Source: a virus
Lineage: Duplodnaviria; Heunggongvirae; Uroviricota; Caudoviricetes
Direction: 5' to 3' (one strand)
IMG/VR virus record: IMGVR_UViG_3300033146_003879
Location: 54,990-118,989 of that record
DNA: 64,000 nt
The translations under genes were made by a program, and so were the position numbers. Under the pieces are notes generated by a model. That model searched no databases and was not told where the DNA came from. It was given only the letters and a program-made list of their open reading frames with translations. Each line of letters starts with the position of its first letter. Positions within the stretch are counted from its first letter, which is position 1. This document shows positions 3,819-36,250 of this stretch, piece by piece.

Positions 3819-4649
3819 TTAGACGAGGGGTGTTCCGTTAAGATAAGCTTTGTATTGAGCCATAAATCCGTTGTCTGACTTACCATAACTCAGATCATTG
3901 ATTATACTGAAGTTAAGTGGGACTTCTTTTGATGCGACGATATTAACGTTTGGCTGGAACTGAGATTGTCCACCCGCTCTCGTTGAATCATTCAGTCCAC
4001 CTTGTAGTCTACAATTCTCATAGTAGGATACAATAACTCCCTCGTTACCTTTTGTGAGTGTGATGCGAAGAATACCGAACTCCATTTCGTAGAACTCAGA
4101 GTGTGCAAAATTCATAAACAAGTCGTCTTTACTCATCGCTACGGGTTTGAATCCAGAAGCGGTATCCGTCCCACCATCACTAATGAAGTGATCAACAAGC
4201 GATCCGTTGTTATACTGGATTATATCATAGTACAGGCGCTTCAGTAGTGTGTACTTTGATGAAGGTGACTCTGAGCTTCCGGTTGTGGCTCCTGTTGATG
4301 ATGTAGGGTCGCCTGACACTAGGCTGTAGGCTCCTAGTCCGATTGACACAGAACCGTGCGTAGATGGTGTAGTGAACGTCTCAGGTGATCCGATTACGGG
4401 GTACTCCCCGCTGCCTGTCCTACTAGTTGTTACAGTGAACGTTGTGGAGAACGACAAAGGTGTTATTACGTGGTTGGTTGATCCTTGGGATGTTGCTACA
4501 TCGTCTAGTCCTAGTTGGTTTGTTCCCAACAAGGCAAATGTAGGTGGTCCGGAAAAGATCATTGTTTTGTCTGCTGTTGTTGAGCGAAAAGAGATATCTA
4601 GTCTATCCTGCTCGCTAATGTCGAAGTATTGTGCTAGTCCTTTTGCCAT
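3819..4649 (-). CDS. Putative tail tube protein
   Basis: Directly follows the sheath gene; beta-rich, 276 aa from MAKGLAQ (GGAGG-6 nt-ATG at 4649). Confidence 0.55.
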   Translation of the reverse strand: MAKGLAQYFDISEQDRLDISFRSTTADKTMIFSGPPTFALLGTNQLGLDDVATSQGSTNHVITPLSFSTTFTVTTSRTGSGEYPVIGSPETFTTPSTHGSVSIGLGAYSLVSGDPTSSTGATTGSSESPSSKYTLLKRLYYDIIQYNNGSLVDHFISDGGTDTASGFKPVAMSKDDLFMNFAHSEFYEMEFGILRITLTKGNEGVIVSYYENCRLQGGLNDSTRAGGQSQFQPNVNIVASKEVPLNFSIINDLSYGKSDNGFMAQYKAYLNGTPLV

Positions 4650-4650
4650 C

Positions 4651-7428
4651 TTATGCCTCCGTTGCAACTACGGCGTCTGTTACAGTCACGTAGTTATCAA
4701 TAGTTATTAGTTGATCCTGCGGCGATACGCCGTATCTGATAACAAGGCCATTTGGTATAATTGTTATCTCTGCAGCTGTTGCTTTTGCAAGAACTGTTCC
4801 GAGGTGTTTGTAGTAGCGGCTCAGATTTCTTCTGCGGAGAGCTTCAAGACGAAGTCTGATCTCCTGAATAACATCTTCAACAACGTTGTTTTTGCCAAGG
4901 AACTGTTTTGTAATGAAATAAATGTCTTTTGCGTACAACGCGACGGGTTTGATTTTGGGTAGCGTCCCATTCAGAGATGTCCCTTGTTTGAGGCCGCAGC
5001 TAGCATCCCGTATGCAGTATGGCTCAGGAATAGCTCCGAGTGTTGATGTGAGTACGTAGTACCCTGCTGACACTAGTTTGGTGAAGCCTTCCCGTGAGAA
5101 TACAGAGGTTGTCCCATTAACGCGCCCATACCCGAACCCTGAGATTACAACAGACGTGAGAGGCTGGTGTGGAGGAGTACTGATAGATGGGGCAAACATG
5201 AGTATTCCGCTAAACATGTTGTCTAAGCTAATCTGCTTTTCTGTATCTGATCCAACAGGTGTGTATTTGTATTCAATAGTTCCTGATAGGATCTTAAATA
5301 ACCACATGTTGTCTGAGTTCTGAGAGTTGTACATGTAGTCTGCTGTCTCTACGGAGTTCATGTGTTTTACAGCAGTTATGTGTGTTACAGGTCTTGCTGT
5401 GAACACTGAGTTTGTTTCTACAAACACAACATAATTCAACCCTATGTCAGATGACACTGTGAGGGGTGGTAGCGCTGCTCCTGTCAGTGGAGTGAGATTA
5501 ACGATCGATCCTGGGATAAGTTTTGCAGCAAGATCTACACCAGTAACACTTGTGGTGAACATGTAGTGATCACCAATTGTCGTGTCTAGTGTTCCGGCCA
5601 TCCCTTCGTTATTGAATATCACATCATCGGTAACTATTTTTGTTGGGTTCATCCCAATTCTGAATCGAGAGTTGTCAGGGTCGGCTTCTTGTTCCAACCA
5701 TGTATCAAATACACCTCGGTAATCATCCACAAGGAGGTATACCTGGAAGATATCAATGTAGTTTGACAGGATCCCTAAGCCGTCGTTTATGCCTTGATCT
5801 GTTGATGTGTCAATTGGCATAACGTACATTCGAGTCGTTCCTATCATATCCATTGATCGTTGACAAGCAAATCCGAGTGGGTTGCGAGGATCAGCGTATC
5901 CTATCTTGCTGAGGATATCACTATCGACGAGAATAGCGTTGTTAAAAATAGTGGGGTCGCGGTTCTCTGCAATATACCCAAGGTAAACATCACCTGTTAT
6001 TAACAAACCATCATCGGCGCCACACCAAGCAGTGTTGCAGAGTTCGTGGTACTGCCCAGACGCGTATCCTCGGATTATCTTCTTGTCGGTGTATGCGTTT
6101 TGCGTACCGTCCAAAGAGGCTTCTGTTGTTGTTGGATTTACAGTTGTGACGAGATCTCTAACGTCATCTGATTCTTCATCATATACAAAAGAGAACTGCG
6201 TTCTAGCGGTAAGACCTGTTGCAAAAGTTGATGTGCTTGAAAAAGGTTTGTCTGTGAGTGTTATAACACCATTAGCTTCGACAGACTTTTTAACTCGGTC
6301 GATTCTAGTTGTAACAAGTGTTCCTCCAGTATCAACCTCTCCTATAGTGGCTGTGGACTCGTTTGTAATGTAGGTGTGCAGAGCGGCTATGTACTCGGTA
6401 TCGCCAGCTTCCGTACTTGCTACATATGATGGTACGTAGGTCGCTGGTGCCACAGTTCCGGTTACAGCGGGAGCATCAAAAGTGTTGTCTGTTGTGGTGA
6501 ATAAGTCGCCGCCATACAGTCCCATAAGAACACTATGCACTTCAACAGAGGATGCACCTAGGATATCACTCGTACTGAGCCCTGTGTAAGCAATCTCGAC
6601 GGTTGATGTTGCGTCCATTATGTCGGTGGCTAATAGCGTTATTGACGCTTTCATATAGCCAGGTCCTACGTAAGGCACAGAGGAACTCATAAGTTCTGCT
6701 GTTGTTGGTGGTGATGTTGGGACGACAGGTGCCACAACTCCTGCAGCTGTCGCTGTGAACAACTGTAGCGTATTATTTGATATGGTTCCTGTGTTTGTTC
6801 CAGGTGCTGTGGTGAGATCGCGATCTGACAGTAAGTAGTGATCTACTGTTCCTCCGGCCTTTGGAGTAATAACAACTACAAATGACCCAGGCACGGCAAA
6901 GGCATCCGGCATCGGGATTGCTATTGTTAGCACGGATCCAGAGGTGTATAACACACCCTCAGATCCAGTAGCAAATGTATTTGGGTCTGGGGTTACGACT
7001 GTTTGTGAGGAGGTGTCTGTTACATCTTTGCTTGTGAGTACGCACGTTGAGTAAGATAGTGGAATAAGCGTGTGTCTATTAGTTGCTGGGATTACACTGG
7101 TGTTCAAAGACCGATACATAGCAAGGAATTGAGTTGATCTATCATACAACGAAACTGTATCTACGTCGACTTCTGAATAATCCCGGAGGTTTGGGTAGGA
7201 GGTTAGCGGGACTGTTATTGAGGTACTCTTGGTAACATCGTACTTTAGGTCTAAGTTTGTATCTGCGTCAGCAGGTACAAAGTGACCGTCGTCCTCGGCA
7301 GAGCCGGGAACAATGTGTAGGTCCTTGCTTTCTCCGAGAATAATACCCGAATAAGTGATTTGGTTGATGGCTACTGAGGCCGGCTTGTACTCTAGGTATA
7401 CTCTCGAGATCGGGATCAAATCATACAT
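4651..7428 (-). CDS. Contractile tail sheath protein
   Basis: 925 aa, T/S/V-rich insert domains, C-terminal sheath-like segment (RNPLGFAC...MYVMPID...FQVYLL...RFRIG); sheath-then-tube gene order; CTATAAT motif upstream. Confidence 0.6.
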   Translation of the reverse strand: MYDLIPISRVYLEYKPASVAINQITYSGIILGESKDLHIVPGSAEDDGHFVPADADTNLDLKYDVTKSTSITVPLTSYPNLRDYSEVDVDTVSLYDRSTQFLAMYRSLNTSVIPATNRHTLIPLSYSTCVLTSKDVTDTSSQTVVTPDPNTFATGSEGVLYTSGSVLTIAIPMPDAFAVPGSFVVVITPKAGGTVDHYLLSDRDLTTAPGTNTGTISNNTLQLFTATAAGVVAPVVPTSPPTTAELMSSSVPYVGPGYMKASITLLATDIMDATSTVEIAYTGLSTSDILGASSVEVHSVLMGLYGGDLFTTTDNTFDAPAVTGTVAPATYVPSYVASTEAGDTEYIAALHTYITNESTATIGEVDTGGTLVTTRIDRVKKSVEANGVITLTDKPFSSTSTFATGLTARTQFSFVYDEESDDVRDLVTTVNPTTTEASLDGTQNAYTDKKIIRGYASGQYHELCNTAWCGADDGLLITGDVYLGYIAENRDPTIFNNAILVDSDILSKIGYADPRNPLGFACQRSMDMIGTTRMYVMPIDTSTDQGINDGLGILSNYIDIFQVYLLVDDYRGVFDTWLEQEADPDNSRFRIGMNPTKIVTDDVIFNNEGMAGTLDTTIGDHYMFTTSVTGVDLAAKLIPGSIVNLTPLTGAALPPLTVSSDIGLNYVVFVETNSVFTARPVTHITAVKHMNSVETADYMYNSQNSDNMWLFKILSGTIEYKYTPVGSDTEKQISLDNMFSGILMFAPSISTPPHQPLTSVVISGFGYGRVNGTTSVFSREGFTKLVSAGYYVLTSTLGAIPEPYCIRDASCGLKQGTSLNGTLPKIKPVALYAKDIYFITKQFLGKNNVVEDVIQEIRLRLEALRRRNLSRYYKHLGTVLAKATAAEITIIPNGLVIRYGVSPQDQLITIDNYVTVTDAVVATEA

Positions 7429-14190: not shown

Positions 14191-14242
14191 TTCTCACCTC
14201 GAAAAAATAAAGGACCTCGATTGCTGCTTTAATTATAGAGTA

Positions 14243-14265
14243 AGCCCCCTGCATTGCAAGGGGCT
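14243..14265 (-). terminator. Hairpin ending the Ubl module
   Basis: AGCCCCUUGC-AAU-GCAGGGGGCU 10-bp stem just after the ThiF stop; weak U-tract. Confidence 0.5.
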
Positions 14266-14271
14266 AAACTC

Positions 14272-15876
14272 TTAAGACGCTTCTTTGATCTTCTTTTTCT
14301 TCTTGGCGGTCTTAGCAGTAGCAGCCTTCGCCGTCACTACTTTTGCCCTCTTTTCCTTGTCTTTATTCGCCTGTTCACGTGCTCGTTCTTCTGCAGCTTC
14401 CCGAGCAAGTGCCGCTGCCAGCGTATTTCTCATACGAGCATACCCCGTTGCCCCTTGCGCAATGACTTTTGAGTGTATGCTCGATCCGTGGATAGATATA
14501 CCATCAGTAACAGCTTCAACAACAGGATCGAGGTCCCAGAAGGTTGCCATATCATCCTCTGTTGTTCCAGCTTCTGCTGCAAAGAATTCCACCATGTTAA
14601 TAGAGGCATCCACATCAAACTCAGTAGTTTGATCATGTTCAGCTGCTAGCTTCCCAGCCAGATCTATTACCTGCTCGTCGGTAACATCTCCATCAGGTAT
14701 CGTGAGAAGTACTTTCCTGATAGCACCGCGCGTCCTTCCTAGTTTTCTTTCAGGTATGGCGGGAAGGCCGTGATTTCTCAGGGTATAAATCCCAGAGATA
14801 GAACTTCCTGTTTCATCTCTGAGCTCGTTAATGCGTGATATATTAGTACCCATTGCCGCTAGAATAGTTTCACGATGAACTCCTTTAGCAGTACTCACGC
14901 CACCTAGCTCTGCAATATTCCACAATTTCGCAATCCATCCAGCAACAACCCCGGTGAGGTGTGTGGCCGCCATCATATTCATGGTAGCTGTCTGTGGAAC
15001 CGGCGCTGTCTCTTCCGTGACAGCACAACTATGTAGCGCATCAGGTACAGTCAAGTCGGCGTTATACACATGCGTATAGTCAACAAGGGGTGTATTAACA
15101 GCGCCATTTATAGCAAAGTCAACATCATCATTACCAGCATCGATGTATGCGTAAGATGCGCTAGCGCCACCTCGACCAGCATTCGACAATAGTACTTTAA
15201 GCCCTTCTACAGGAAACAATCCAGACGCGTTTATATTGCCGTCGGAATATCTTGTAACCGCCCTGACGTGAGAGGCCTCCTCGTCATCTATGAAATAAAC
15301 TGCGGTGCGAGCGTCAAAATCTTTTTCCGCCACCGCTTCGATTATCTCTTTGACAGGTTCGATAGATTCAGCAAACCTATCAAATGCAAATTCTCGAGTT
15401 TTGCTTACATGTTTATGATAGTGCTTCTCAAGGGTCTTCCTTGTTAGGTTGTTGTCTACACACATTACAGTTATCGCGGCAGCAACTTGCTCGGGGAATA
15501 ACATCTCCTTAAGGTCCTCGTCAAGATCCCCGTCCGCATTCTCCAACACCAATCTCTCGACCGCCTCTATCCTAATTGCGGGCATATAACCATTCCCAGT
15601 ATTGAGGTGAGGGTCTGTTTGCACTACCGCGGCTGCGAGTATGCGTTCGAGCTTCATGCGCAGATAATCAACCTTCGTCATGCCTATGGATTCCATACCA
15701 AGAAAATGCTGCCGCACCAGGTTGCGTAACTCAATACGATCGTTGTCTATCAAGTTGATAAGCACGGCGCGATCCTCATCTTCGTGGCGCATCCCAATAA
15801 CAGCTCTCAGTATTTGTTCTGAGAACCAGGCGCCGGTACCCCCAGCGCCTATGATGTTTATAGTAATCGCGTTCAT
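14272..15876 (-). CDS. ThiF/E1-like ubiquitin-activating family adenylyltransferase
   Basis: IIGAGGTG, IDNDRIELRNLVRQHF, KVD, CVDNNLTR, YIDAGN and a candidate catalytic Cys in HSCA...PQT. Confidence 0.9.
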   Translation of the reverse strand: MNAITINIIGAGGTGAWFSEQILRAVIGMRHEDEDRAVLINLIDNDRIELRNLVRQHFLGMESIGMTKVDYLRMKLERILAAAVVQTDPHLNTGNGYMPAIRIEAVERLVLENADGDLDEDLKEMLFPEQVAAAITVMCVDNNLTRKTLEKHYHKHVSKTREFAFDRFAESIEPVKEIIEAVAEKDFDARTAVYFIDDEEASHVRAVTRYSDGNINASGLFPVEGLKVLLSNAGRGGASASYAYIDAGNDDVDFAINGAVNTPLVDYTHVYNADLTVPDALHSCAVTEETAPVPQTATMNMMAATHLTGVVAGWIAKLWNIAELGGVSTAKGVHRETILAAMGTNISRINELRDETGSSISGIYTLRNHGLPAIPERKLGRTRGAIRKVLLTIPDGDVTDEQVIDLAGKLAAEHDQTTEFDVDASINMVEFFAAEAGTTEDDMATFWDLDPVVEAVTDGISIHGSSIHSKVIAQGATGYARMRNTLAAALAREAAEERAREQANKDKEKRAKVVTAKAATAKTAKKKKKIKEAS

Positions 15877-18521
15877 TACTCCGCTTCCTCCGTTTTAGAT
15901 TGTCCTTTCTCAGCCACTCCCTGAGCAAGAACTGTGTTCTTGTCAAACAGCACCTGCAGTCTGTCCTTCCAACCAACAAGTGCTCCTCTAGCACTCACAT
16001 CATGAGCTGCGGTGTCTAACAACCTACAGATGATTGCAACAGTAAGGAGTATATTTGCTGCATACATCGCGTCAGCTATAGTATGTATTTCCAACTCGTC
16101 AGCAAACTCCTCAATAAGTGGTCTCGGAATAGGCTTAACCAGGTTAGTTGTGAGTGCGGGTGGTGCAATAACTGCTTCCGAATCCGTCGAATAATGTGTA
16201 TACAGCATACCAGCAACCTTAAGCATATTATCATTCATGACTTTTTCGACAGCACTCCAAGGACGTAAGTATTGAGTTTGCTTAATAAGAGCCTCAACTC
16301 CTGGGTGGATTGCATAATGCATAGCGAGGTTGTACACGGTTCCGTAAGAAACAACTTTAGGGTCGATACCCTCTGCACCTACACTATACTTCTCGTATAT
16401 GTCAACCTCCATCAAATTCGCTTCATACATTGCAACCAGTTCAGCATACACTTCTGTAGGGATATCTTTCGCTGCCCACGAATTCTGTGCCATAACACCA
16501 GCAACCGCTTCAATAAAGAGGATATCTATAGCTACAGCATGCACTTGCTCTGTGGCATCAAACTCAGGAACGGCATATCTTTCAATAGCGTCATCAACAA
16601 CACTCAGCGATACAGGGTAGAACTGCGCGGTGTAATCCTCAACAGGTTTTGCTTCGCCTGTTGCTGGCATAATATCTGCCATCTCCTCTATGTACTCTTC
16701 GACAAAGCTCGCTTCTATCTCAAACAGTGTTTCCATGTGTTCCTCAGCAGCGTCAAGTGTCAGTTTGTCTATAGAAAGCTTTTCGTCATTAACACACGAC
16801 TCTGCTATACCTATGAGGTTAGCAACAACAGAATCTATCGCATCGCCGTCAACGTGAGATTTCACAACGCTCTTAATCGGTTCCAGTTCTGCAATTTTAG
16901 GAGCTGGTGTAGTAGCAGTTCTTAACGCAGGTGCCGTGGTGTGAGGCGAGGTTCTTCCAGCGCCGATAGAATCGAACATATCGACTCCTGCATATTGCTC
17001 CCACGCGGTTCGATAACCACGATAGTTATTCTGGTAGTTTCCGGTGTATCCTGTGTACCTTGGTGCGTGGAAAAGCTTGTACCCCTTATCTTCAAGTGGG
17101 GACTGCTTCAAGAACGCTCTGTGCGCTCCATTTACATTACGAAACAGTGTAGTGTGATCAATCCGCAGGTTTTTGTCGAGATATTTTGATGTTCCAGGAA
17201 TAAGCGTATATGCAGAGAACGTTGACGCCATGATATCGATGTACAATGTAAGCTCTACCTTTCGCTCAAGTTCGTCTCTCTCCATAAGTGCCAAGCCAAT
17301 AGGTGCGGTCTCTCCTGACATCTCAAGCTTACTGTCTCCTTTGTGAATATGAACGAGAATCTTAACACCATTGACTACAAGAATCTTTCGTACAGCTGTG
17401 AGGAGTTCAACCCCCGCGTTACCAAATCTCGATAAACCCATTTCGGCTTCCAGCTTGGTACGAAGCTCCATAACGTCGAGTGAGTTTGGGACAAAAGCGC
17501 AGTCGACAACATCAACATCATTACGGAAGAAGAATCTACCATCGCTACCTTCAATCGCTTCTGCGTAGGATTTAACAACAGCAGCCTTAGGCTTTATCGC
17601 ATTAGCCGTGTACCCTCCTGTAGCAGGGACCAACAAGGCATTAGTTGGCTGCTTAAAGGACTTGCGTTTATACTTCTTCTTGTGCCCGCCAATAATTCTG
17701 TGTAACCACGATCCGCCTGTTCTCTTCAACGCAGCTTGCTCAGCGGCGACGCGTGCGTCTTTTACTTCTTTGTGGCGCTCTATAACAGTATTTATATGCT
17801 CAAGAGTAAGCTCATCCAGTGCTTCCTCTGCTGTCTCGGTGAGACGCCAATGCATGTCTGGAACACCGTTTGTAAATGCATCTTTCGGATCAAGAAATTT
17901 CTTAACTCCAGACAATCTTACATTCACACCACCAAACTCGTTGCTACTAGGAGAAAACGTAATGTTACCGTAGTAGCGTCCATTCATCTTCTCTGTTGAG
18001 GCCTGATCGGGACCGGAAAACATTCCGGGGGCAACACCGAACGGGTGGCTGTGAAATTCTCCAACAATTACTGCATTTGGATAATGCATAAACATGCGCT
18101 TAATTGCGGGTATCTCAACCGTATAAAATGCGCCTTGTAGATCTTGATATTCAGGACACACAACAAAGTACTCCCCAGAGTCATTGTCTCGCATAACAAA
18201 TGCGCACGCCTCTGTGCCGAGCTCGGCAGAGATTTTACCAATAACTTGACGTACTTGAATGAGCACTTCTGTAGGAAGCTTTTCTTTTATCCATGTCTTG
18301 ACCGGAACCTGAGCTTCTTCTGGAACTTTATACCACTCACCGTCGTGCGGTATAATTTCACTATAGTTGCGATCTGCCTCAATCATGTTAAGTAGCGACA
18401 CTCCTTCTTCAGAAGTATCAAGCACAACTTGCGGCGTTGACTCAAGAGTGTCTGCTACAGGATACTCTGATATTGCGAGCTCTGATACGCAGGTTACTGC
18501 GATGTTTTTCTTTTTTAGCAT
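15876..18521 (-). CDS. JAB/MPN+ metallopeptidase with long acidic C-terminal extension
   Basis: TEAC...EFHSHPFGVAPGMFSGPD matches E-xn-H-S-H-x(7-8)-S-x2-D; start taken at MLKKKN behind GGAGGAAATCCCT; stop overlaps the ThiF start (TAATG). Confidence 0.85.
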   Translation of the reverse strand: MLKKKNIAVTCVSELAISEYPVADTLESTPQVVLDTSEEGVSLLNMIEADRNYSEIIPHDGEWYKVPEEAQVPVKTWIKEKLPTEVLIQVRQVIGKISAELGTEACAFVMRDNDSGEYFVVCPEYQDLQGAFYTVEIPAIKRMFMHYPNAVIVGEFHSHPFGVAPGMFSGPDQASTEKMNGRYYGNITFSPSSNEFGGVNVRLSGVKKFLDPKDAFTNGVPDMHWRLTETAEEALDELTLEHINTVIERHKEVKDARVAAEQAALKRTGGSWLHRIIGGHKKKYKRKSFKQPTNALLVPATGGYTANAIKPKAAVVKSYAEAIEGSDGRFFFRNDVDVVDCAFVPNSLDVMELRTKLEAEMGLSRFGNAGVELLTAVRKILVVNGVKILVHIHKGDSKLEMSGETAPIGLALMERDELERKVELTLYIDIMASTFSAYTLIPGTSKYLDKNLRIDHTTLFRNVNGAHRAFLKQSPLEDKGYKLFHAPRYTGYTGNYQNNYRGYRTAWEQYAGVDMFDSIGAGRTSPHTTAPALRTATTPAPKIAELEPIKSVVKSHVDGDAIDSVVANLIGIAESCVNDEKLSIDKLTLDAAEEHMETLFEIEASFVEEYIEEMADIMPATGEAKPVEDYTAQFYPVSLSVVDDAIERYAVPEFDATEQVHAVAIDILFIEAVAGVMAQNSWAAKDIPTEVYAELVAMYEANLMEVDIYEKYSVGAEGIDPKVVSYGTVYNLAMHYAIHPGVEALIKQTQYLRPWSAVEKVMNDNMLKVAGMLYTHYSTDSEAVIAPPALTTNLVKPIPRPLIEEFADELEIHTIADAMYAANILLTVAIICRLLDTAAHDVSARGALVGWKDRLQVLFDKNTVLAQGVAEKGQSKTEEAE

Positions 18522-18571
18522 AGGGATTTCCTCCAATATTTACAAATGTATTTCCAAAAAATAAGCGAGGA

Positions 18572-18611
18572 GGAGCCCGTTTATATCCGCCAGCAGATAT
18601 AAACAGGCTCA
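18572..18611 (-). terminator. Stem-loop between Ubl and JAB genes
   Basis: Inverted repeat GAGCC-C-GTTTATATC / GATATAAAC-A-GGCTC on the plus strand; may be an attenuator or mRNA stabiliser. Confidence 0.45.
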
Positions 18612-18620
18612 CTCGTTAAG

Positions 18621-18923
18621 TTACGCGACGGCGCCGGAAGCCTTAGACTTCACGGCCGTACTTGCTACAATCTCCTCTTCATAGGTACGATCTTGTGCAC
18701 CGTATGATTGCTGAACAACAGGGCTTGACTCCCCTGCGCTGTCGGGAACGTTGTTCGCAAACTCGCGAACCTCCCTCAAGTTCATGCCGTCAAGATCGGG
18801 TGGCATCTGGTCGCCTCTGGATTTTGCAGCAGCAAAAGCTGCAACAAACTTTGATGTAAAGTTAGACCCTACACCTTCAACAGTCACAGTACGAGATCCG
18901 AAACGGAGCTGGTAAGTTTTCAT
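18621..18923 (-). CDS. Ubiquitin-like (beta-grasp) protein candidate
   Basis: 100 aa from MKTYQLRFGSRTVTVEG (beta-hairpin then helix), ending KSKASG-AVA; directly upstream of JAB and E1. Confidence 0.55.
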   Translation of the reverse strand: MKTYQLRFGSRTVTVEGVGSNFTSKFVAAFAAAKSRGDQMPPDLDGMNLREVREFANNVPDSAGESSPVVQQSYGAQDRTYEEEIVASTAVKSKASGAVA

Positions 18924-19016
18924 TGGGATTTCCTCCAAGTTATGTACATAAATGGGACAATGCGCCCCTACCATATTCTTATACCACATCAGGTGCTTCA
19001 TTTTGCATTATGGTAC

Positions 19017-19916
19017 CTATCGTCTTGTGTGAATGATTACATTAATGCACGCCATTACAAGACTCATTGACGTATTGTTGTAAATGGTATACTGGCTAAA
19101 ACTACTATCATGTATCTTAATATCGTTCAGTATTGGTATGGAGTTTCCGCTAAACTGATACTCTTTCTCATTGAATGCACGACTCAGCATAGCGCGTATA
19201 TTATCGCGTGTCTCAGTCAGGATTCTCCCTGTCGCCCGAGCCTCCATAGCCCCATTTTGAGAAGAGATGTCCGCAGAGGCTGCGCCAAAGGACAGAATAG
19301 CACCGGCAATAGCAAACGCTATCTTAAAGTACGTCTCATCATTCTCCTCGAGAAGCTCAAACTTCTTGTTGTCTTCTCCTTGGCTATAGTATGTGCCTGC
19401 TAGCCATTTATGTATGTCTCTCTGGGCATGTCGAAGGAACTCTCCTGGAGGAGCATCGAACGATATCACATGGGTCTCGGCAACTCGACGAACGAGAGTA
19501 TCAACAGGAGGGATGAAGCCCCTGTTACCTTTATAGACAGTGACATCCGCAACAGGCAAGACAAGAGCCAAGCCCGTCTTACTTTCATACACTTCGTGCC
19601 ACAACTTTGCAAGCGTCTCAGGCGCAAGATTGCGCTCTTGCGTGCGGTATCGCACCTCTGCAGCGTCAAACTCTGCTAGTTTGTTAATATCACACACTTC
19701 TCTCCCTTGCGTAAAATTAACGCATAGGCCATTCCTGTATATAATGTCTGGCCTGAACGGGCTTGCGATAACATCGCTGAGTATCTGAACATCGGAGGAG
19801 AGGTCCGCAAGCGAGCTCATGATATCTTTCATATCCTTCTCTAACCTTGCCTGAGCCTCTCGCATCGCTTTTATATTAGCGCGTAGGTTTTTCTTCCTTT
19901 CTTTTCGGTCATTCAT
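19017..19916 (-). CDS. Hypothetical protein of the Ubl module (N-terminal coiled coil)
   Basis: ORF from MNDRKE with GGAGG RBS; no recognised domain. Confidence 0.6.
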   Translation of the reverse strand: MNDRKERKKNLRANIKAMREAQARLEKDMKDIMSSLADLSSDVQILSDVIASPFRPDIIYRNGLCVNFTQGREVCDINKLAEFDAAEVRYRTQERNLAPETLAKLWHEVYESKTGLALVLPVADVTVYKGNRGFIPPVDTLVRRVAETHVISFDAPPGEFLRHAQRDIHKWLAGTYYSQGEDNKKFELLEENDETYFKIAFAIAGAILSFGAASADISSQNGAMEARATGRILTETRDNIRAMLSRAFNEKEYQFSGNSIPILNDIKIHDSSFSQYTIYNNTSMSLVMACINVIIHTRR

Positions 19917-19957
19917 AGTATCCTCCGGTAACCGGGCAGCGTTAGCCACCCGGATAT

Positions 19958-22645
19958 TTAAATAAACATCTGCGCCGCAGACTCAGCGACTGCTTTCTCC
20001 ATAGAAATCGGGGTAACGTGCACCAATGCACTCATAAGCAGCGCCAACAACCTGTCGGAGCCATCTGATTCTATCTTAGCAACAACCTGATCAAATATAA
20101 CAGGATTAAACACGCTTAACACCTCGTCGACACCATTATCAATATATGGAAGCGCATCATCTTCAAGGGCAGCATTGAGTTCGTGAACTGTCTTCCCAGC
20201 CAGTGTGATATATGGAAGCGCATCATCATCTTCAAGGGCAGCATTGAGTTCGTGAACTGTCTTCCCAGCCAGTGTGTCAGGTATGCCTCTAAACAAGCTT
20301 GCGTTGTACGGGTCTTCAAAATAGAGGCCTGTGTCACGCAGTACTGTCGCCGTGGCAGTCGGAAGCATTGCGGCGAACAGAAAGTCTATGGGTCGAATAT
20401 AACTCGACATTGACGACACAGCTTCGATAATATTTTCCTTACTCTCTGGAGAGAACGCGATGCACTCACGTATTGTCCGTGCGTACATGTCCGTCATCAC
20501 ATAACGCAAGAACGTAATATATGAGAATACTACAAGTGTGACTTTCTTTGTGTGAGACAACGCCTTCTCTTCATCAGTGACAAATAATTCGTCGGCGTGT
20601 TTCTTCACAATCCTATCAAACAAGATATATGCAGGAGTGTCTCGTTTCTTCAACTGCCGCCACCCGTTGCTTGAATAACTCAGATTTCTCTCCATGTGCT
20701 CAGCAACATCAATGAGAGAGTAGTGCTCCGGAACAGACAGGGAAGCATCGAGCGTATTCTCATCAGTTCTTCCCTGGTAGTTTGATTGGCGTAGGTGGTG
20801 CGAAGGCCCAGTGGAACGAGTAACCCACCAAGAATCCATATCATGTAGCGTAACTTTATTAGCACCATCATCCTGCATTGTTATCTTTGTCTTTGTACGG
20901 ACTTCGCCAGTAAGCAACTCCCGAAGCCTTGCTATAGGAAACAACTCATACTCGATCACTACGTTTGAAATGCGGGCATGCGTACCCTCCGCCGCATACG
21001 CAGTAATGTCATTGTAATCTAATGGTGATACGTAGCGTTTATACCACCCTTCAGTGCGGCTCCTGATAGCTTCGAAGTTATAGTTACTTGGTATTACATC
21101 ATATCCATCGTTGGGTATGTCGTCGTACCCAAATGCGAGTGCGAGCAGATTTGATAAAGTAGAATTACCTTGCTCATTATCACCTAATTCGTTAATCAAA
21201 GGAGCACATACGAGACCATATGCACCTCCGTAAGAATCATATGTTATGTGGCGTAAACTTGTGCCGAGGTCTGCGTTCCATTGTTCAATCTCACTCTCCA
21301 GAACCTCCCGAGCCCGAATGGTATTTGCGTTACCTGTACAGATGCTCCGTTGTGCCGCGGGCGCGTGGAAATCATTCGCAGCATTCGTGTTTGCTCTGCC
21401 TACAACCGAAATGGTACGTGCTCTCGTGTACCCACGCAGTGTACCTGTACTGTATCGGTTTATGGTATCTATCACGCTACTGCTGATTCCGCCATGAATA
21501 TTACCCATGATCGGCTGAAAGTCAGTAGGTGTTATATATCCCCACGCGGTTAGGGTACCAGACCCCGTTATAAGGCCGTCCTGCGAATCATATGCGCTTG
21601 GAAGATCCGACAACGTTACCGACTTTGAGATAAAGACGTGTCCTTTTATTGAAACATATCCACCATCGGAATTGGTGTAGGAGTTACCGCGAACACCTTG
21701 ATCATTACCTTCAAGTAGGTGGTGTGACATGGCAAAGTGATTACGTATATCGGTGAGGTTAAACGGTGTTACTATATTCTCTTGGACACACATACGCCTA
21801 AGCGGCCTAGCGCAAACTGAAGCTCGCTTCATTATCAGGTGAAGGCCTTGCCCATAACTTGAAAGAACATTCTGATATCTACTTGAGCTTACTATCACCG
21901 TATTTTCTTGTACATATCTTGAATCGACACCGAGTTCAACCTCCTCGGACGATACACCGATAAGAGACCCAGACAAACCGAGTGATGTACGCAGAGCATT
22001 TCTATGCTCCTCGTTCTCTTCTCCGAGGAAATACTTCTCGAAGGAATTATCTCCAGGTAGAGGGTTAGCCATAGGTTCTCCGAATACAACAGCTCTCCAG
22101 AAAGCAACAACATTAGGATCAAAATCAACTGACCTCAACGATAACTTAAGAGAATCTCTTACACCACCTTGTAAACGCAGATACTCAGGAAACATAGCGA
22201 TAGGGTATGCGCCAAGTTGATACTCAGCTTCGCGCTGCGTGAGCGCTTTATCTGACATTGATGCTATGGTATTTGCTATCACATCGCCTTTGAGAACGAT
22301 GTTACTGTCATGCACTCTATCAAGCTTTTGATAAAGCTTAATAATAAGTGCTCCATTAAGCGGTCTACTCTCACGCCGCTCTCCGTCCCTGGCCTCTTCG
22401 GCAATAAACCCAGCACCACGAATAGCGTCAATTGCTGGTTCTCCAGTGAATGCTTGCTTCAAGTAATCAGGGATATCCTCTGAGTCAAGGAATTGTGCAA
22501 CTTCGGTAGGCATAACAAATACATCCGGATCTACTTCTTCTTCAACAACACCGTTTGCTCGCGTGACTCTCAAAGCTCCTCTAATCACATCTAACGGAAC
22601 GCCGTGCGCGTATACACCACGTACTTGTACATTAATTCTTGGCAT
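19958..22645 (-). CDS. Large hypothetical protein heading the Ubl module (possible divergent E2-like domain)
   Basis: 895 aa from MPRINV; FHAPAAQRSICTGN weakly resembles the prokaryotic E2 family D Cys motif. Confidence 0.35.
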   Translation of the reverse strand: MPRINVQVRGVYAHGVPLDVIRGALRVTRANGVVEEEVDPDVFVMPTEVAQFLDSEDIPDYLKQAFTGEPAIDAIRGAGFIAEEARDGERRESRPLNGALIIKLYQKLDRVHDSNIVLKGDVIANTIASMSDKALTQREAEYQLGAYPIAMFPEYLRLQGGVRDSLKLSLRSVDFDPNVVAFWRAVVFGEPMANPLPGDNSFEKYFLGEENEEHRNALRTSLGLSGSLIGVSSEEVELGVDSRYVQENTVIVSSSRYQNVLSSYGQGLHLIMKRASVCARPLRRMCVQENIVTPFNLTDIRNHFAMSHHLLEGNDQGVRGNSYTNSDGGYVSIKGHVFISKSVTLSDLPSAYDSQDGLITGSGTLTAWGYITPTDFQPIMGNIHGGISSSVIDTINRYSTGTLRGYTRARTISVVGRANTNAANDFHAPAAQRSICTGNANTIRAREVLESEIEQWNADLGTSLRHITYDSYGGAYGLVCAPLINELGDNEQGNSTLSNLLALAFGYDDIPNDGYDVIPSNYNFEAIRSRTEGWYKRYVSPLDYNDITAYAAEGTHARISNVVIEYELFPIARLRELLTGEVRTKTKITMQDDGANKVTLHDMDSWWVTRSTGPSHHLRQSNYQGRTDENTLDASLSVPEHYSLIDVAEHMERNLSYSSNGWRQLKKRDTPAYILFDRIVKKHADELFVTDEEKALSHTKKVTLVVFSYITFLRYVMTDMYARTIRECIAFSPESKENIIEAVSSMSSYIRPIDFLFAAMLPTATATVLRDTGLYFEDPYNASLFRGIPDTLAGKTVHELNAALEDDDALPYITLAGKTVHELNAALEDDALPYIDNGVDEVLSVFNPVIFDQVVAKIESDGSDRLLALLMSALVHVTPISMEKAVAESAAQMFI
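20142..20276. repeat. In-frame tandem duplication (66 + 69 bp)
   Basis: TLAGKTVHELNAALEDD(D)ALPYI twice; the nucleotide copies are identical except for one extra codon. Confidence 0.9.
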
Positions 22646-22810
22646 GGGATTTCCTCCAGGTAATAAAAAAGTTTCCATCTACTTATACCATAAAGTTGAC
22701 ATTAAAATAACGCGAGGTGTACGCCTTGTTGTTTGCTCTATAATTAGTATGTTCATCCGATTGAGTTGTATTCAGTTCGGAGTTGTTATGTAATTACTGG
22801 AGGTGTTACC

Positions 22811-29542: not shown

Positions 29543-31048
29543 TCACTTCTTCAACTTCAAATAACTCCTAAACATCATATCTTTCAAGTTGCCTTTAGTC
29601 TTAACAATATACTGTACTCGCTTCTCAACGGAATCTCCTGAAGCGACGTAGTATTTGATGAAGACAGGGAGCTCCTGTCCTTTACGGTATATTCTTCCAT
29701 TCGCCTGTTCAACAAGAGCGAAGTCAGGTGTCAGTTCGTACCAGAAAATATATTGTGTGTTTCCTGCAAATAGGTTGAGGCCTGTTCCGAGAGTCTTCGG
29801 GTGAGCAATTATATACATGATATCACCCTTTGCGTAAGCTTCTAATATCTTTCTACGTTTCTTTAGTGTTGTCTTTCCTGTTATAACAGAGAACTTGTCT
29901 TTTAGAGTTTGTGATCGTTCAAGAACTGATGCGACACGCTCTGCAGTTTTTGTGAAATTTATCCACACAAGTGCACGTTGGTGCACAGCTTCAAGATTCT
30001 CGAGGTCGTGTACGAGGAGCTCTTCTTTTTGTATAGGCGTGTCCGCATCTTCCCTTAAGTCAAGTTCGATCTGCACTCTAACTTCATCGTCTCTCATAAC
30101 AACAGGGAGACCTGTATCGAGATCCACCTCATCCCCTTCGGACACTTCCTTAATGTTCATACTTGCAAACCCACTGCACATCTGCTGCATGAGCAACATT
30201 CTAATTGCAGGACTCTCAACTTCAACTTGTTCTTCTTCGTCCTCCGCCTCGTTCAATGCGTAACCCTCTGCTTTCAGTATATCTATTGCACCAACCTGCT
30301 TAGGTGACAATGCATACCTTGAAGTGGTCTCTGTTATAGGAGGGAGCTCTATTGCATCGACAGCTTTCTTGAATGAGGCGTACCGCCTCACCATGTTGCG
30401 TAAAACAGGGAGCATATCTTTCTGCGGCAGGTACGTGTGTGCCCCCGCATACTTGAGCTTTTCAAATGTTATTCGGAAGTCCCGAAGTGAGGAAGCAAGG
30501 TACCCGGGCTTTATAACCATGAACTGCGAGAAGAAGTCCTCCACACCTGAAGGTATCGGCGTACCGCTTAGTAACAACACTTTATCCGTTGATCGCACCA
30601 TCTTAACTATTGCACGCAGTGCTTTCGAGTCGGGATTCTTTACATTATGGCTCTCATCGAGGATATACATGTCAGGACGGGGGTATGTTCTCGCTCGAAA
30701 CAGAGTGTATGTTGTTATTATTATTCTCGGTTGCGGGTGATCTACGAGATATTTATCAACATGCTCTTGCATAACTCCTGCACGAATAACTAACATGTCT
30801 TCCCACGACGTAAATCCAAGCTTTGTCATATCATCTTCCCACATATCAATAATGATTGCAGGAACTAATATAAGAACTGTTGTTAGCTTCTTAGCTCGGA
30901 ACAGCATCTTCGTTGCGTGTTGAGATAAGTATGATTTTCCAAGCCCGGGCTCAAAAAAAATACCGCCTCTGTACCCGTTCTTCCGCCATTTAGTGAGCGC
31001 TGCTTTCTGGAAGTGGTAAAACACTTGCTTCTCTTCTGGTACTGTCAC
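29543..31048 (-). CDS. SNF2-family (SF2) helicase/ATPase
   Basis: FEPGLGKS, LDESH, LLSGTP, HPKTLGTGLNL, QANGRIYRKGQ. Confidence 0.92.
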   Translation of the reverse strand: MTVPEEKQVFYHFQKAALTKWRKNGYRGGIFFEPGLGKSYLSQHATKMLFRAKKLTTVLILVPAIIIDMWEDDMTKLGFTSWEDMLVIRAGVMQEHVDKYLVDHPQPRIIITTYTLFRARTYPRPDMYILDESHNVKNPDSKALRAIVKMVRSTDKVLLLSGTPIPSGVEDFFSQFMVIKPGYLASSLRDFRITFEKLKYAGAHTYLPQKDMLPVLRNMVRRYASFKKAVDAIELPPITETTSRYALSPKQVGAIDILKAEGYALNEAEDEEEQVEVESPAIRMLLMQQMCSGFASMNIKEVSEGDEVDLDTGLPVVMRDDEVRVQIELDLREDADTPIQKEELLVHDLENLEAVHQRALVWINFTKTAERVASVLERSQTLKDKFSVITGKTTLKKRRKILEAYAKGDIMYIIAHPKTLGTGLNLFAGNTQYIFWYELTPDFALVEQANGRIYRKGQELPVFIKYYVASGDSVEKRVQYIVKTKGNLKDMMFRSYLKLKK

Positions 31049-33135: not shown

Positions 33136-35364
33136 CTAAACGGATTTCTTAATGAGTTTCGGCTGCCGCGCCTTTTTGTCAGGCATGAACATCGTTTGGG
33201 AATACCCTTCACGCCCTACAGTCTTATTCCACTCAAGTAGCCCCGTAAGGCGTCTCTTGTCTTTCGCACTGTACGTTTGCCCTTTATAGTCTATTGGCCT
33301 ACCGCCAGACTTATGCAGAGCTAGGAGTATCTGATTTGTCTCGTACACTCTCTTTCGTGGCACTCTTATGTTACCGTTTTTGTCGAGGAGTAGGCCGAGT
33401 AATTTCTTATCGTCTCCAGATTGAAGGGTTGTCTTGTCAGGATTGATCTTAAGTTTAAGTTCTGTAACGGAGTCGCTTATAACTTGCATAACCTGGCTCT
33501 CAGCAATACTTAGCCCGGTTTCATACAGGAGCGCACGCCTTCGTGTCGGGTCAGCAGATCTATCCACTACATCGAATAACGCATACACGTTATCGCTGTA
33601 AATTATGGTGCGTAAGTTCTCGTAGTGTAGTACAGAACCACTACTCTCCATTTCTTTGTATCCTTTCTCAATGCGCTCAAGGAATGTGTTAGCCACCATG
33701 TTTGCAAGGAACGGGCTTGTAAGAGCGCCTTGCGGAAGCCCGTACGCAAATCTTGTTTTCACGGACTCCTTCTCATGCCGTGTCATTATTTGAGTTAACT
33801 CAATATACTCACCGAGACCGAGGCGCTTTGCTCTTATGTCAACTCCAAACAGTATCCCCTGTATCATGTTTATACTAACATTACTGTGCGCTCCTACCCA
33901 GTCACTGAGTATCTTGGTAGCTTTCTCTAAGTCCTCGTCTTCGTGCAGCAGCATATTACGAAGGACATGGCGGATACTGCGGTCACTACTTAACTCCGCT
34001 TTGTCGTACTGCTCATAGTTTAACAGTATTAGTGACGAAGTAAATGTCCGCATAACATCTTTATATAGATACACAATAGGGCTGAACACATGAGCCAGGT
34101 CATGAAGTCTCTTGCGTTCTAAACTTAGTATGTCAGACCCGTACCAATGCACAAGGTTATCTACATTACTTTCTCCTGCTTCCCGTAAAACGACGAGAGG
34201 CCCCTTCCATCCATAGCTATTCTTGCTGGAGGAGCTATGCATTGTCGCACGCATTGCCTGGGCATGCAGGAGTGTCTGCGGCGAGGAAACAGCTGACACA
34301 TGAGTTTCCAGGTTAGCCTGGGTGTTGAGCACTGTGAGCAACATGTCTATGGCACGTAGTTCCATAGAGCTCAAGTACTCTTCCAAGTGATACTTATTCC
34401 GCATGCGCTCAGAAGTACTCGGGATATCCTTCATTCGCTCAATCTCTACTCCGATAACACCTGCAACAGCCTCGTTCATTAGATATACAGCGTCATTAGA
34501 ATGACTGACAAGTACAAGATCAGTAGCAACCTGCAGTGTCCTTATAGCACTCTTCCAACTCTCCCCTTCTTGATAGTCTCGAGCTCCACCACTGGGGACT
34601 TTTGTAGCAACCATTGATGCTACAGTTTTCTGCGCAAGCTCAAGCAGCTTTGCAACGAACTCTGTAGAGTTGAATGCTGTGTTCTTCAGAGAGTTCACGA
34701 GAGAGAGTTCCCGCTTACTACCGTGGATCTGGTGATAGTAGTTTTTGAGGTCAACGCTTAGCATATGCTCTTGCGTTAACTTCATATCGCGGATTGCTTT
34801 CACAAACCCCTTTCCGGGAACATACGCAATGTTATCTCTGTGCGTAGCTTCAGCCCCTGTGTTGTCGTACAGTTTGTTGAGTATTGCTTTTTGCATGATG
34901 CGCATATCTTCGCTCGGTGCATGAACCATGCGTACTCCACCACTCTTCTTCGGAATGAGATGCATAGTGTACATGTGGGTTGCTGGCACTCCAGGTGAGA
35001 CACGTATTGCAATGTTACCTGCTCCTACAGTCTCCCGGAAGGCACTCGATGAACAACGCTTCTCGTTAACGCTGACTCTTCCACAGTCTGTATTAAGGAA
35101 TAAGGGAGGGATGTCGGTCGAATCGCTCCGGTCTGCACCTACAGGAACATTAGCCCACCATAGTAAATAATCCACAAGGGTTGTTGCGATAAGATCGAGT
35201 TGATCTATGCGCTCGTTGTTTGTTTTTGACGACTTCTTAGAGAGAACTCTAATGTTTGTGTACCTCCGACCGCGGCCCCTCTTGTACGTAGTAGATTGAG
35301 GCTGTAGTGCTGCAAGTATGCCGCTCCTAACTGTACGAAACTCTTTCTTCAATCTTCTTTTCAT
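33136..35364 (-). CDS. Atypical bacterial-type reverse transcriptase (retron/UG-like, YSDN active site, large insertion)
   Basis: IPKKSGGVRMVHAP, MQKAIL, AYVPGKG, SVDLKNYYHQI, GLPQGALTSPFLAN, IIYSDN, LKINPDKT, LLGL; start taken at ATG 35364 behind GGAG (ORF track start is 35388). Confidence 0.9.
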   Translation of the reverse strand: MKRRLKKEFRTVRSGILAALQPQSTTYKRGRGRRYTNIRVLSKKSSKTNNERIDQLDLIATTLVDYLLWWANVPVGADRSDSTDIPPLFLNTDCGRVSVNEKRCSSSAFRETVGAGNIAIRVSPGVPATHMYTMHLIPKKSGGVRMVHAPSEDMRIMQKAILNKLYDNTGAEATHRDNIAYVPGKGFVKAIRDMKLTQEHMLSVDLKNYYHQIHGSKRELSLVNSLKNTAFNSTEFVAKLLELAQKTVASMVATKVPSGGARDYQEGESWKSAIRTLQVATDLVLVSHSNDAVYLMNEAVAGVIGVEIERMKDIPSTSERMRNKYHLEEYLSSMELRAIDMLLTVLNTQANLETHVSAVSSPQTLLHAQAMRATMHSSSSKNSYGWKGPLVVLREAGESNVDNLVHWYGSDILSLERKRLHDLAHVFSPIVYLYKDVMRTFTSSLILLNYEQYDKAELSSDRSIRHVLRNMLLHEDEDLEKATKILSDWVGAHSNVSINMIQGILFGVDIRAKRLGLGEYIELTQIMTRHEKESVKTRFAYGLPQGALTSPFLANMVANTFLERIEKGYKEMESSGSVLHYENLRTIIYSDNVYALFDVVDRSADPTRRRALLYETGLSIAESQVMQVISDSVTELKLKINPDKTTLQSGDDKKLLGLLLDKNGNIRVPRKRVYETNQILLALHKSGGRPIDYKGQTYSAKDKRRLTGLLEWNKTVGREGYSQTMFMPDKKARQPKLIKKSV

Positions 35365-36250
35365 TTGCATCTCCGTTTTTCGGCTCATGTTTCAGGATAT
35401 ATATCCCACAAAATTCTCTGTAACTGCAGCTTGAGCAATGTGCTCCAACTACTGTCTTTCCGGTTTTCGTTAAGTCTTCTCTTAGGCTTTTTGGGAACGA
35501 TTTGTGCGCGGAGTAAATAAAGCTCCGGAACTTTGTATCATACCACAGATCTCTCTCTGCCTTCGCTCTTGGTATGTGCAGCAGTTCTTCTGATGCTGAC
35601 CAGTATGATGGTATTACCATGTCTTGCGTCTCGTTAATAGCAAGTATCATTCCGATTGTAACCTGCTTGTCAGGATACTGCTGCAAGTTACTTAGCATCG
35701 ATATGTAGAATTCTTTCTCAATCCGTGTTATGTCACTCCGTCCTGACCTAACAAGAAATACGAACACTTCGTCGGAACCCTCTATAACGAGGTTGTTCAT
35801 GGTTCGTAGAAGGATGTTACCTTGGCTATCTCTAACATTCACCGGAACATTATAATACGTTGTTGCCTCTCCTGTCCTATCTCGCACTTCTTTCTGTATA
35901 TGTTCGATGTGTTGAACAATGAGTTTAAGTGTCTCTACCTGTACAATATTCCCAAGCTCTTGTACAATACTCTCAAGTATATAGTCATCAACCGGTAACG
36001 ATAACTTCTGCAACACATGTACAAGTGTTCCCCAGTGAGAGGCCTTTCTCTCAACCTGGTCCTTTGGAGCCCCTGACACTTCAAGAGCCGCGGCTACTCC
36101 GCAAGGATTCAGTATCGACGACAGGCGTCTTCCTCGGTAATTATCGATACATCTGTTGACTGTTTCTGTGTTCTTTTGTGCTTGTCCATGCTTTTTTAAC
36201 ATGTGGATAAACTCCGCCGTTACGGAGAACACTTCTTTATTCTGGCTCAT
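35327..36250 (-). CDS. Cas4/AddB-like Fe-S protein, apparently catalytically inactive
   Basis: N-terminal Cys, GTLVH and C-terminal CSSCSYREFC present; the expected D...DxK positions read N...LVR. Confidence 0.65.
   Translation of the reverse strand: MSQNKEVFSVTAEFIHMLKKHGQAQKNTETVNRCIDNYRGRRLSSILNPCGVAAALEVSGAPKDQVERKASHWGTLVHVLQKLSLPVDDYILESIVQELGNIVQVETLKLIVQHIEHIQKEVRDRTGEATTYYNVPVNVRDSQGNILLRTMNNLVIEGSDEVFVFLVRSGRSDITRIEKEFYISMLSNLQQYPDKQVTIGMILAINETQDMVIPSYWSASEELLHIPRAKAERDLWYDTKFRSFIYSAHKSFPKSLREDLTKTGKTVVGAHCSSCSYREFCGIYILKHEPKNGDANEKKIEERVSYS

Follow-up and report, generated by a model that had tools for sequence, protein, structure and literature searches.

A phage-borne E1-like enzyme and JAMM peptidase with a small partner protein: a candidate E2-independent tagging cassette

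What does a bacteriophage do with an E1-like activating enzyme and a JAB/JAMM peptidase of its own? The question is raised by phage record IMGVR_UViG_3300033146_003879 (183 kb, 88% complete), of which a stretch of 64,000 nucleotides was analysed; this stretch is called here the window, and positions refer to it unless the genome or another locus is named. An earlier note on this DNA had described a conjugation module of five co-oriented genes encoding proteins of 895, 299, 100, 881 and 534 residues, and all five open reading frames (ORFs) are present as claimed, on the minus strand. The unit that emerges from our analysis is made of the last three: a small protein of 100 residues (18621-18923), a JAB protein of 881 residues with a JAMM motif (15876-18521), and a ThiF-type E1-like enzyme of 534 residues (14272-15876). 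The JAB stop codon overlaps the E1 start codon in TAATG, the coupling that the earlier note had pointed out, and the adjacency of the two genes in relatives supports the view that this phage-borne E1-like enzyme and JAMM peptidase are evolutionarily linked. Quite possibly, and we put this forward as a tentative reading, the cassette is a phage-owned, E2-independent tagging system that trims and activates the C-terminus of the small protein.

The 534-residue protein had been called ThiF from its sequence, and it passes the Pfam ThiF cut-off (E 4.9e-10; 39.4 bits against 28.1). Its core comprises residues 1-145 and about 245-325, which flank a lineage-specific insertion (145-245) and are followed by a C-terminal extension (330-534). 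Residues G10xGGxG15, D44, D46, N52, R55, Q56 and K68 are invariant in an alignment of six E1 sequences (A7); D141, Y267, Y271 and C284 are invariant in another alignment (A1), and are matched in the minimal, 268-residue E1 of a distant locus, L004. Judged by this conservation, the protein is a member of the ThiF/MoeB/UBA superfamily with its nucleotide-binding and catalytic residues intact. It has a single adenylation domain and only two cysteines, with no CxxC pair, and a Pfam scan found no rhodanese domain in it. C284, Y267 and Y271, conserved from the window to L004, are candidates for the acyl-transferring residue of the crossover loop, a predicted placement in a region where the structural model has a predicted local distance difference test score (pLDDT) below 50.

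Curated models match only the first 87 or so residues of this enzyme. The best NCBIfam match is PRTRC_ThiF (TIGR03736), with 32.8 bits against a cut-off of 144.75, and the PADLOC models of CBASS E1-E2 proteins match residues 2-87 at profile positions 177-447, which is the Rossmann segment, their E2 part being unmatched. Among PHROGs, two weak families of unknown function are matched. The E1 family profile, when compared with solved structures, finds its best sequence matches in TcdA and PaaA (E about 4e-4). The AlphaFold2 (AF2) model is confident for residues 1-150 only (mean pLDDT 50.7); all 43 Foldseek matches listed for it at E ≤1e-3 are E1-like (Cap2, UBA5, ThiF, BubCD, MccB, TcdA, PaaA), and they span E-values from 7e-5 to 1e-3, so that classes of E1 are not separated by this comparison. 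Beyond residue 150 the model is too poor for the extra domains of E1 to be interpreted. At the very C-terminus of the window enzyme (14272-14340, minus strand) is a tail rich in Lys, ...KTAKKKKKIKEAS, with a long helix predicted before it; the three relatives P0006-P0008 lack this tail, which may serve in nucleic-acid or membrane contact.

In the 881-residue protein, the JAB domain occupies approximately residues 80-250, and neither the N-terminal 80 nor the C-terminal 630 residues have been assigned. Searching 1.84 billion representative proteins exhaustively brought up no more than 12 relatives, which are similar to each other and to the window protein within the first 250 residues or so. 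The window protein itself scores below the cut-off of Pfam Prok-JAB (E 0.0019; 18.5 bits against 25), and seven of the 13 family members match this model, the best with E 7e-5. All 13 diverged members share, without exception, the JAMM residues E104, H157, S158, H159, S169 and D172, and because of this invariance the identity is accepted despite the sub-cut-off score; the JAB assignment of the earlier note thus stands on the family rather than on the single protein. The best solved match of the family profile is Rpn11, aligned across the HSHP...S..D motif. By its motif, then, the protein is a genuine JAB/JAMM metallopeptidase. No PADLOC model matched it, those of Cap3 and BilC included, and a Pfam scan of the five proteins of the originally proposed cassette found no NlpC/P60 domain.

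How stable is the association of the two enzymes? It was read in four loci outside the window (L002-L005), obtained from a metagenome scan with the JAB alignment. L002 and L003 have the same order as the window: small gene (51% identity), hairpin, JAB gene (55%) and E1 gene (53%). L003 stops within the JAB gene, and the E1 comparison is that with L002, in which the JAB stop directly abuts the E1 start (TAAATG). In the distant lineage of L004 and L005, the JAB protein is 28-31% identical to that of the window, and the minimal E1 is encoded directly upstream of it, i.e., the gene order is reversed. The L004 E1 has an hhalign probability of 98.6% (E 1.2e-15) and keeps the D-Y, V-Y, L-S-C and VPQT motifs. 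The same locus holds homologues of two further window genes, coding for proteins of 925 (4651-7428) and 282 residues (3819-4667), and L004 is therefore a distant relative within the same phage group, and the E1-JAB pair an old resident of this region of the genome. Adjacency in the window, in L002 and, reversed, in L004 and L005 thus defines E1 and JAB as the conserved core of the cassette.

A word-indexed search returned three E1 relatives (39-56% identity) and one small-protein relative (71%), all on short ENA contigs. Scans of IMG/VR for close relatives, whether with either enzyme, with the alignments of the two or with a reverse transcriptase as an anchor, gave no match, and among GenBank phages neither megablast nor tblastn matched the region, either of the two enzymes or the 895-residue protein. 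A TnpB/IS605 OrfB-type gene lies at L004:2197-3354 (minus strand) and also in L005, and has a close homologue (E 4e-64) in the genome of the window phage at 149334-150497, outside the window; it is therefore a mobile element common to the two distant phage lineages.

Where the unit begins and ends is indicated by transcription signals. The promoter-like motif TGGTATAAG, which the earlier note had placed at the boundary of its module, is present 5' of the 895-residue gene (22682-22690, minus strand), and a second copy, overlooked there, is found 55 nucleotides 5' of the small gene (18978-18986, minus strand). The motif is enriched: it occurs 5 times in the window, where 0.55 copies would be expected, and none of 100 shuffles reached this count. 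In L003 it occupies the same relative place (position 295), between the stop of the upstream gene at 279 and the start of the small gene at 339. Given the second copy and the recurrence of the motif in L003, we therefore place the start of a three-gene unit at 18978-18986.

A strong hairpin, likewise overlooked before, separates the small gene from the JAB gene (18555-18615, minus strand; -30.6 kcal/mol, z -5.25, equalled in none of 200 shuffles). It has a U-run 11 nucleotides downstream and probably acts as an attenuating terminator, or else in processing or stabilisation. The corresponding gap in L003 and L002 contains a weaker hairpin (z -2.1, equalled in 5 of 200 shuffles), unrelated in sequence to that of the window. 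The terminal hairpin described after E1 was confirmed by folding (14237-14272, minus strand; -24.5 kcal/mol, z -4.6); it overlaps the E1 stop codon, and a CTATAAT element belonging to the next gene comes after it. In the clade of the window, the functional unit is accordingly one of three genes, not five, in the order promoter, small gene, hairpin, JAB, E1, hairpin.

The small gene lies directly 5' of the JAB gene in all three readable loci of the close clade (window, L002 and L003). Its relatives are 71% (P0023) and 51% (L003 and L002) identical to the window protein, and the three distinct sequences agree over their whole length, the low-complexity second half included, as expected of a genuine gene under constraint. 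Their C-terminal tails are ...KASGAVA, ...KSSGAH and ...KASGARG, that is, K-x-S-G97-A98 followed by zero to two variable residues. Gly97-Ala98 is invariant across the three sequences, with a single Gly and not Gly-Gly, and the disordered tail is conserved as strongly as the folded part. With its invariant Gly and short variable extension, the tail looks like that of a precursor of a ubiquitin-like protein (Ubl) or another modifier.

In the AF2 model, built from a two-sequence alignment, residues 1-60 form a β-hairpin and two helices (strands 2-8 and 11-17, helices 20-36 and 49-58; pLDDT 80-90), and disorder is predicted from residue 61 to residue 100. No Ubl, ThiS, MoaD or other β-grasp chain was among the fold matches found by Foldseek in PDB (best E 1.5) or BFVD (best E 0.27), an exhaustive VIA fold search likewise returned no ubiquitin, ThiS or MoaD chain (best Z 4.4), and the protein is unmatched by the Pfam Ubl families. 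The L003 protein, moreover, has a 5-residue deletion exactly where a fifth strand would need to be. The earlier note had proposed the protein as a Ubl candidate, naming the lack of a β-grasp as the finding that would speak against it; the model, which comes from two sequences, and the fold searches predict none. A 214-residue protein encoded 5' of the L004 E1 had seemed by eye to contain the small-protein domain, and was rejected at an hhalign probability of 0.2%. Elsewhere in the genome, at 21300-50014 (outside the window), six ORFs end in the strict pattern N-h-x3-G-[ED]-[LIVM], with Gly two residues from the end. A C-terminal tag of the type N-h-x3-G-[ED]-L was considered for the small protein and discarded, as its tail does not fit the motif.

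If the cassette does tag proteins, is there an E2 to carry the tag? Neither UQ_con nor Prok-E2_A nor Prok-E2_B was found at E ≤1 in the 183-kb genome, and an hmmscan limited to the five proteins of the original cassette gave no match to Prok-E2_C or Prok-E2_E. Genome-wide searches at the same threshold also failed to find ThiS/MoaD, Prok_Ub, rhodanese, ATP_bind_3 (PP-loop ATPase), Aminotran_5 (cysteine desulfurase) and the SMODS CD-NTase. The statement that no thiS or moaD biosynthetic genes lie nearby therefore extends, for the ThiS/MoaD families, to the whole genome, while ThiG and MoaE were outside this genome-wide search for sulfur partners.

The remaining class, Prok-E2_D, deserves more attention. 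When the E1 alignment was used to scan GTDB and IMG/VR, it picked up 43 loci in bacteria, for the most part Chloroflexota and filamentous cyanobacteria, as well as three phage contigs (125-325 kb). The hmmsearch E-values run from 1e-17 to 1e-9, and the similarity of their E1s is mostly in the nucleotide-binding motifs. A Prok-E2_D gene is located near E1 in 37 of these 46 loci, and by sequence the E1s of the Prok-E2_D loci are the nearest relatives found outside the tight family. In the Pfam-checked loci L006 and L049, the order is E2_D - JAB - ThiF, and in L049 the genes for a reverse transcriptase (RVT_1) and a kinase (PrkA) come next. A profile built from the E2_D proteins of the 37 loci and searched with the speed filters off found nothing in the genome of the window phage or in L002-L005 (best E 0.5, on an antisense ORF). 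The possibility of a Prok-E2_D hidden in the 299-residue protein, the 895-residue protein, the N- or C-terminal parts of the JAB protein, or the insertion and extension of E1 was rejected as well, all hhalign probabilities being at most 0.5%. Since no E2_D is found in it, the lineage of the window appears to be a derivative or cousin, without an E2, of the E2_D - JAB - ThiF operons.

These operons are of some interest in themselves. L006:6585-8804 and about 35 others of L007-L048 (Microcoleus, Planktothrix, Tychonema and Chloroflexota metagenome-assembled genomes) consist of Prok-E2_D, JAB and a minimal ThiF, and the operon of L006 is followed by a gene for a 1154-residue protein without a Pfam match. 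A complete Prok-E2_D - Prok-JAB - ThiF set, with the RVT_1 and PrkA genes after it, is present in L049 (6233-11769) and, with the same genes, in L050, both being IMG/VR phage contigs of 125-190 kb. In L051 (7962-8642; a 325-kb IMG/VR phage contig), an E1-like gene was seen alone. These three phages have essentially only the E1 in common with the phage of the window.

Upstream of the three-gene unit, the genes for the 299-residue protein (19017-19916, minus strand) and the 895-residue protein (19958-22645, minus strand) had been counted as members of the module. None of the related loci contains a homologue of either, and the gene 5' of the small gene in L003 is unrelated. The 299-residue protein has no relatives in a search of 5.8 billion proteins, no family match in Pfam, PHROG, PADLOC or NCBIfam, no usable model in ESM Atlas, and an hhalign probability of 0.1% with the Prok-E2_D profile. 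The 895-residue protein has no match in Pfam, PHROG, PADLOC, NCBIfam, PDB or GenBank phages and no homologue in L002-L005, and its ESM Atlas model (pLDDT 0.29) is not usable. Near its C-terminus a stretch of 24 residues, LAGKTVHELNAALEDD(D)ALPYI, is duplicated in tandem almost perfectly, and hydrophobic stretches occur around residues 700-760; a match to DUF3796 is weak (E 0.03). Read-through transcription from the two genes is possible because no terminator separates them from the second promoter; they may thus be co-transcribed neighbours, and are no more than putative members of the cassette.

The cluster had been placed between baseplate and head operons, which nothing found here supports; the neighbours that can be annotated are instead a DNA primase-helicase of 1092 residues (419-3697, minus strand; DUF5906, E 1e-10; PHROG DNA primase, E 3e-26), an SNF2 helicase (29543-31048) and an exonuclease (36237-37316). 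With the primase-helicase at 419-3697, this block is therefore one of replication, and not of tail or baseplate. Of the 20 other window genes compared with PHROGs, 18 had no match, and neither had the cassette genes apart from E1. An atypical reverse transcriptase is encoded at 33136-35388 (minus strand), about 14 kb from the E1-JAB cassette; in L049 the reverse transcriptase adjoins the cassette, and phmmer found no homology between the two enzymes at E ≤1e-3. A functional link of reverse transcriptase and cassette is a loose lead.

With these elements in place, a mechanism can be proposed for the tagging system. The small protein would be made in excess over the enzymes, with the hairpin after its gene damping read-through to JAB and E1. 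The JAB peptidase would then trim the variable residues after Gly97 or Ala98, as suggested by the pattern of the tails and by the Bil and Bub precedents. E1, an established adenylating class of enzyme, would bind the tail, which is its putative substrate, and adenylate the new C-terminus with ATP. The acyl group might pass to Cys284, or else to Tyr267 or Tyr271, as in the E1s of Bub (PMC11601596), and would finally be transferred, without E2, straight onto a lysine in some protein of the phage or the host, as in SAMP/UbaA; JAB may reverse the linkage too. To judge from the DNA-metabolism genes around the cassette, the targets may be proteins of replication or recombination.

Several observations weigh against this scheme. 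The β-grasp fold of the small protein is not supported by the model or the fold searches, which raises strong doubt but falls short of proof because the alignment of the small protein is so shallow. No homologue of the small protein was detected beside the E1-JAB pair in the distant lineage of L004 and L005, and the small protein may therefore be an adaptor or regulator rather than a substrate. The 630-residue C-terminal part of JAB and the 200-residue extension of E1 could hide a transfer domain that the profiles missed. The E1 model is poor past residue 150, so that Cys284 lies only putatively in the crossover loop. The linkage evidence outside the window, finally, comes from four loci only.

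What else might such a cassette do? The same enzymes could have another substrate, E1 and JAB acting on the C-terminus of a different protein, much as Cap2 and Cap3 act on the CD-NTase, with the small protein in the role of adaptor, regulator or inhibitor. That only E1 and JAB are kept in L004 and L005 is in line with this, and the genome offers candidates in its proteins ending in ...G[ED]L (six by the strict pattern). Tails of that type, however, keep their last two residues after Gly and so look recognised, not trimmed, whereas the tail of the small protein has the look of a precursor, and in the close clade its gene is locked to those of the enzymes behind a shared promoter; on balance we regard another substrate as unlikely. 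The tail could also be read in a metabolic sense, as that of a sulfur carrier which is matured by JAB and whose thiocarboxylate supplies the sulfur for a metabolite, a tRNA or a base in DNA. In CysO/Mec+ and QbsE/QbsD, a JAMM peptidase matures the sulfur carrier in just this way. E1, JAMM and a trimmed small carrier without an E2 make up the classical arrangement (Iyer et al. 2006, PMC1779556), and the phage module is located among DNA-metabolism genes. Yet no rhodanese, cysteine desulfurase, PP-loop thiolase or ThiS/MoaD was found at E ≤1 in the genome, whose 88% completeness and a possible supply by the host temper the point; the E1 is without a rhodanese domain, the carrier is not predicted to be a β-grasp protein, and no sulfur-acceptor enzyme was identified, all of which makes a sulfur carrier improbable.

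The chemistry of peptide maturation has to be considered for similar reasons. A gene for a precursor, a hairpin and then the genes for enzymes is the typical layout of an operon for ribosomally synthesized and post-translationally modified peptides (RiPPs), and the phage cassette has this layout together with a disordered substrate tail. Here the E1-like enzyme would modify the tail of the precursor, as in MccB/MccA or PaaA/PaaP, to give a RiPP-like or peptide-nucleotide product that JAB releases; the best solved matches of the E1 profile, TcdA and PaaA, do not act on Ubls, and MccB and PaaA are among the Foldseek matches, although Foldseek is unable to separate the E1 classes. The extreme C-terminus of the small protein is variable (VA, H, RG), however, whereas MccB-type chemistry wants a fixed terminal residue, and no export or immunity genes were recognised in family scans, which leaves peptide maturation a slim chance. 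Counter-defence is the last role to be weighed: JAB would strip conjugates of the Bil or CBASS type made by the host, and E1 would divert or sequester host modifiers. Bacterial E1/E2/JAB systems do act in anti-phage defence (PMC10557695, PMC11601596), and this module belongs to the phage and has long been part of its lineage. But a deconjugase alone would suffice for this purpose, yet a catalytically intact E1 is always kept alongside, and no similarity to the PADLOC models of Cap3 or BilC is seen, so that we give counter-defence, too, little credence.

If the tagging system is accepted as the working reading, what would follow? The roles described in the literature for prokaryotic E1 and JAB proteins are in sulfur metabolism or in bacterial anti-phage defence (type II CBASS, Bil and probably Bub). 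A virus with an E1-JAB pair of its own, retained through deep divergence, would be evidence that ATP-driven activation of C-termini is used by phages too. The absence of an E2 and a partner without the β-grasp, if true, would make this a minimal, three-component system for studying what an E1 requires of its substrate and how it transfers directly to lysine. We may even be dealing with a phage lineage that practises E2-free tagging with a new class of modifier, a domain of two strands and two helices with a disordered tail whose Gly is exposed by JAB, though this stronger claim is rather doubtful. The targets, once found, could reveal a new layer of phage-host or phage-internal regulation, and the cassette lends itself to experiment, being small, with clear catalytic residues and a small partner that can be tagged.

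How does the phage cassette compare with known systems? Our literature search found no published description of a phage E1-JAB pair. The families of cassettes among which the earlier note had sought its relatives do not accommodate it: membership of PRTRC is opposed by the score of 32.8 bits against 144.75 for TIGR03736 and by the other PRTRC models, which match none of the five proteins; type II CBASS (Cap2/Cap3) by the lack of a SMODS CD-NTase in the genome and of an E2 domain on the E1; and Bil by the failure of family searches, the E2_D profile and hhalign to find a separate E2. What sets the phage cassette apart is that no E2 was found, that the partner is probably not a β-grasp protein, and that the enzymes are unusually large and divergent.

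Resemblances are instructive nevertheless. TAPI (a Ubl) and TAPK (JAB with NlpC/P60), the tail assembly proteins of lambda and T1, likewise place a phage JAB beside a small protein with a C-terminal Gly that is its proposed substrate; they are without an E1 and belong to tail genes (PMC1779556), whereas the JAB described here is accompanied by an E1 and has replication genes as neighbours. The mobile E1/JAB operons of classes 6a-6d described by Iyer et al. (2006, PMC1779556) each contain an E2-like domain. The Prok-E2_D - Prok-JAB - ThiF operons of cyanobacteria, Chloroflexota and phages, which are related to Bil and class 6, share the JAB-then-E1 order, and some are phage-borne, but they have the E2_D gene beside the pair and minimal E1s of 230-300 residues, and their JABs are missed by the profile of the window JAB family, apart from one marginal match.

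In Bil, an E1 and a JAB also go together with a small protein that has a conserved Gly and variable residues removed by JAB. In type II BilA proteins, a Gly that is conserved throughout precedes residues that are not (PMC10557695), and the crystallised BilA ends in Gly97-Ala98, as here. Bil differs in requiring the E2 BilB and in the β-grasp fold of BilA, neither of which was found in the phage cassette. Type I Bub (6E.1) has the same JAB-then-E1 order, fused in BubCD and translationally coupled in the phage, and Foldseek places structures of BubCD among the best matches to the phage E1 model. The Bub operon encodes BubAB (Ubl-E2), BubCD (JAB-E1) and BubE, with a β-grasp Ubl and a DUF6527 serine protease; the JAB of BubCD trims the pre-Ubl, and the E1s of Bub use Tyr, their crossover loop being without Cys (PMC11601596). 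Tyr is conserved near the putative crossover region of the phage enzyme as well (Y267, Y271). Unlike Bub, the phage has JAB and E1 in separate genes, an invariant Cys284, and no E2 or Ubl fold that could be found, and a Pfam scan limited to the five cassette proteins gave no match to DUF6527.

The last comparison is with systems that do without an E2. No E2 is known for SAMPylation, and Thermus TtuB/TtuC with a JAMM peptidase provides a second example of an E2-independent Ubl. SAMP becomes conjugated to lysines in a reaction that requires UbaA, an E1-like enzyme, and a JAMM protease undoes the linkage (PMC4443979). The modifiers SAMP and TtuB are β-grasp proteins ending in Gly-Gly, and UbaA is MoeB-like and takes part in sulfur transfer too; in contrast, the phage partner is predicted to consist of a β-hairpin and two helices with a 40-residue disordered tail ending in Ser-Gly-Ala-x, and its enzymes, phage-owned and very divergent, are large (E1 of 534 and JAB of 881 residues). 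What the phage cassette has in common with SAMP/UbaA/HvJAMM1 is the basic set of parts: an E1-like enzyme, a JAMM peptidase, and a small protein with a C-terminal Gly region.

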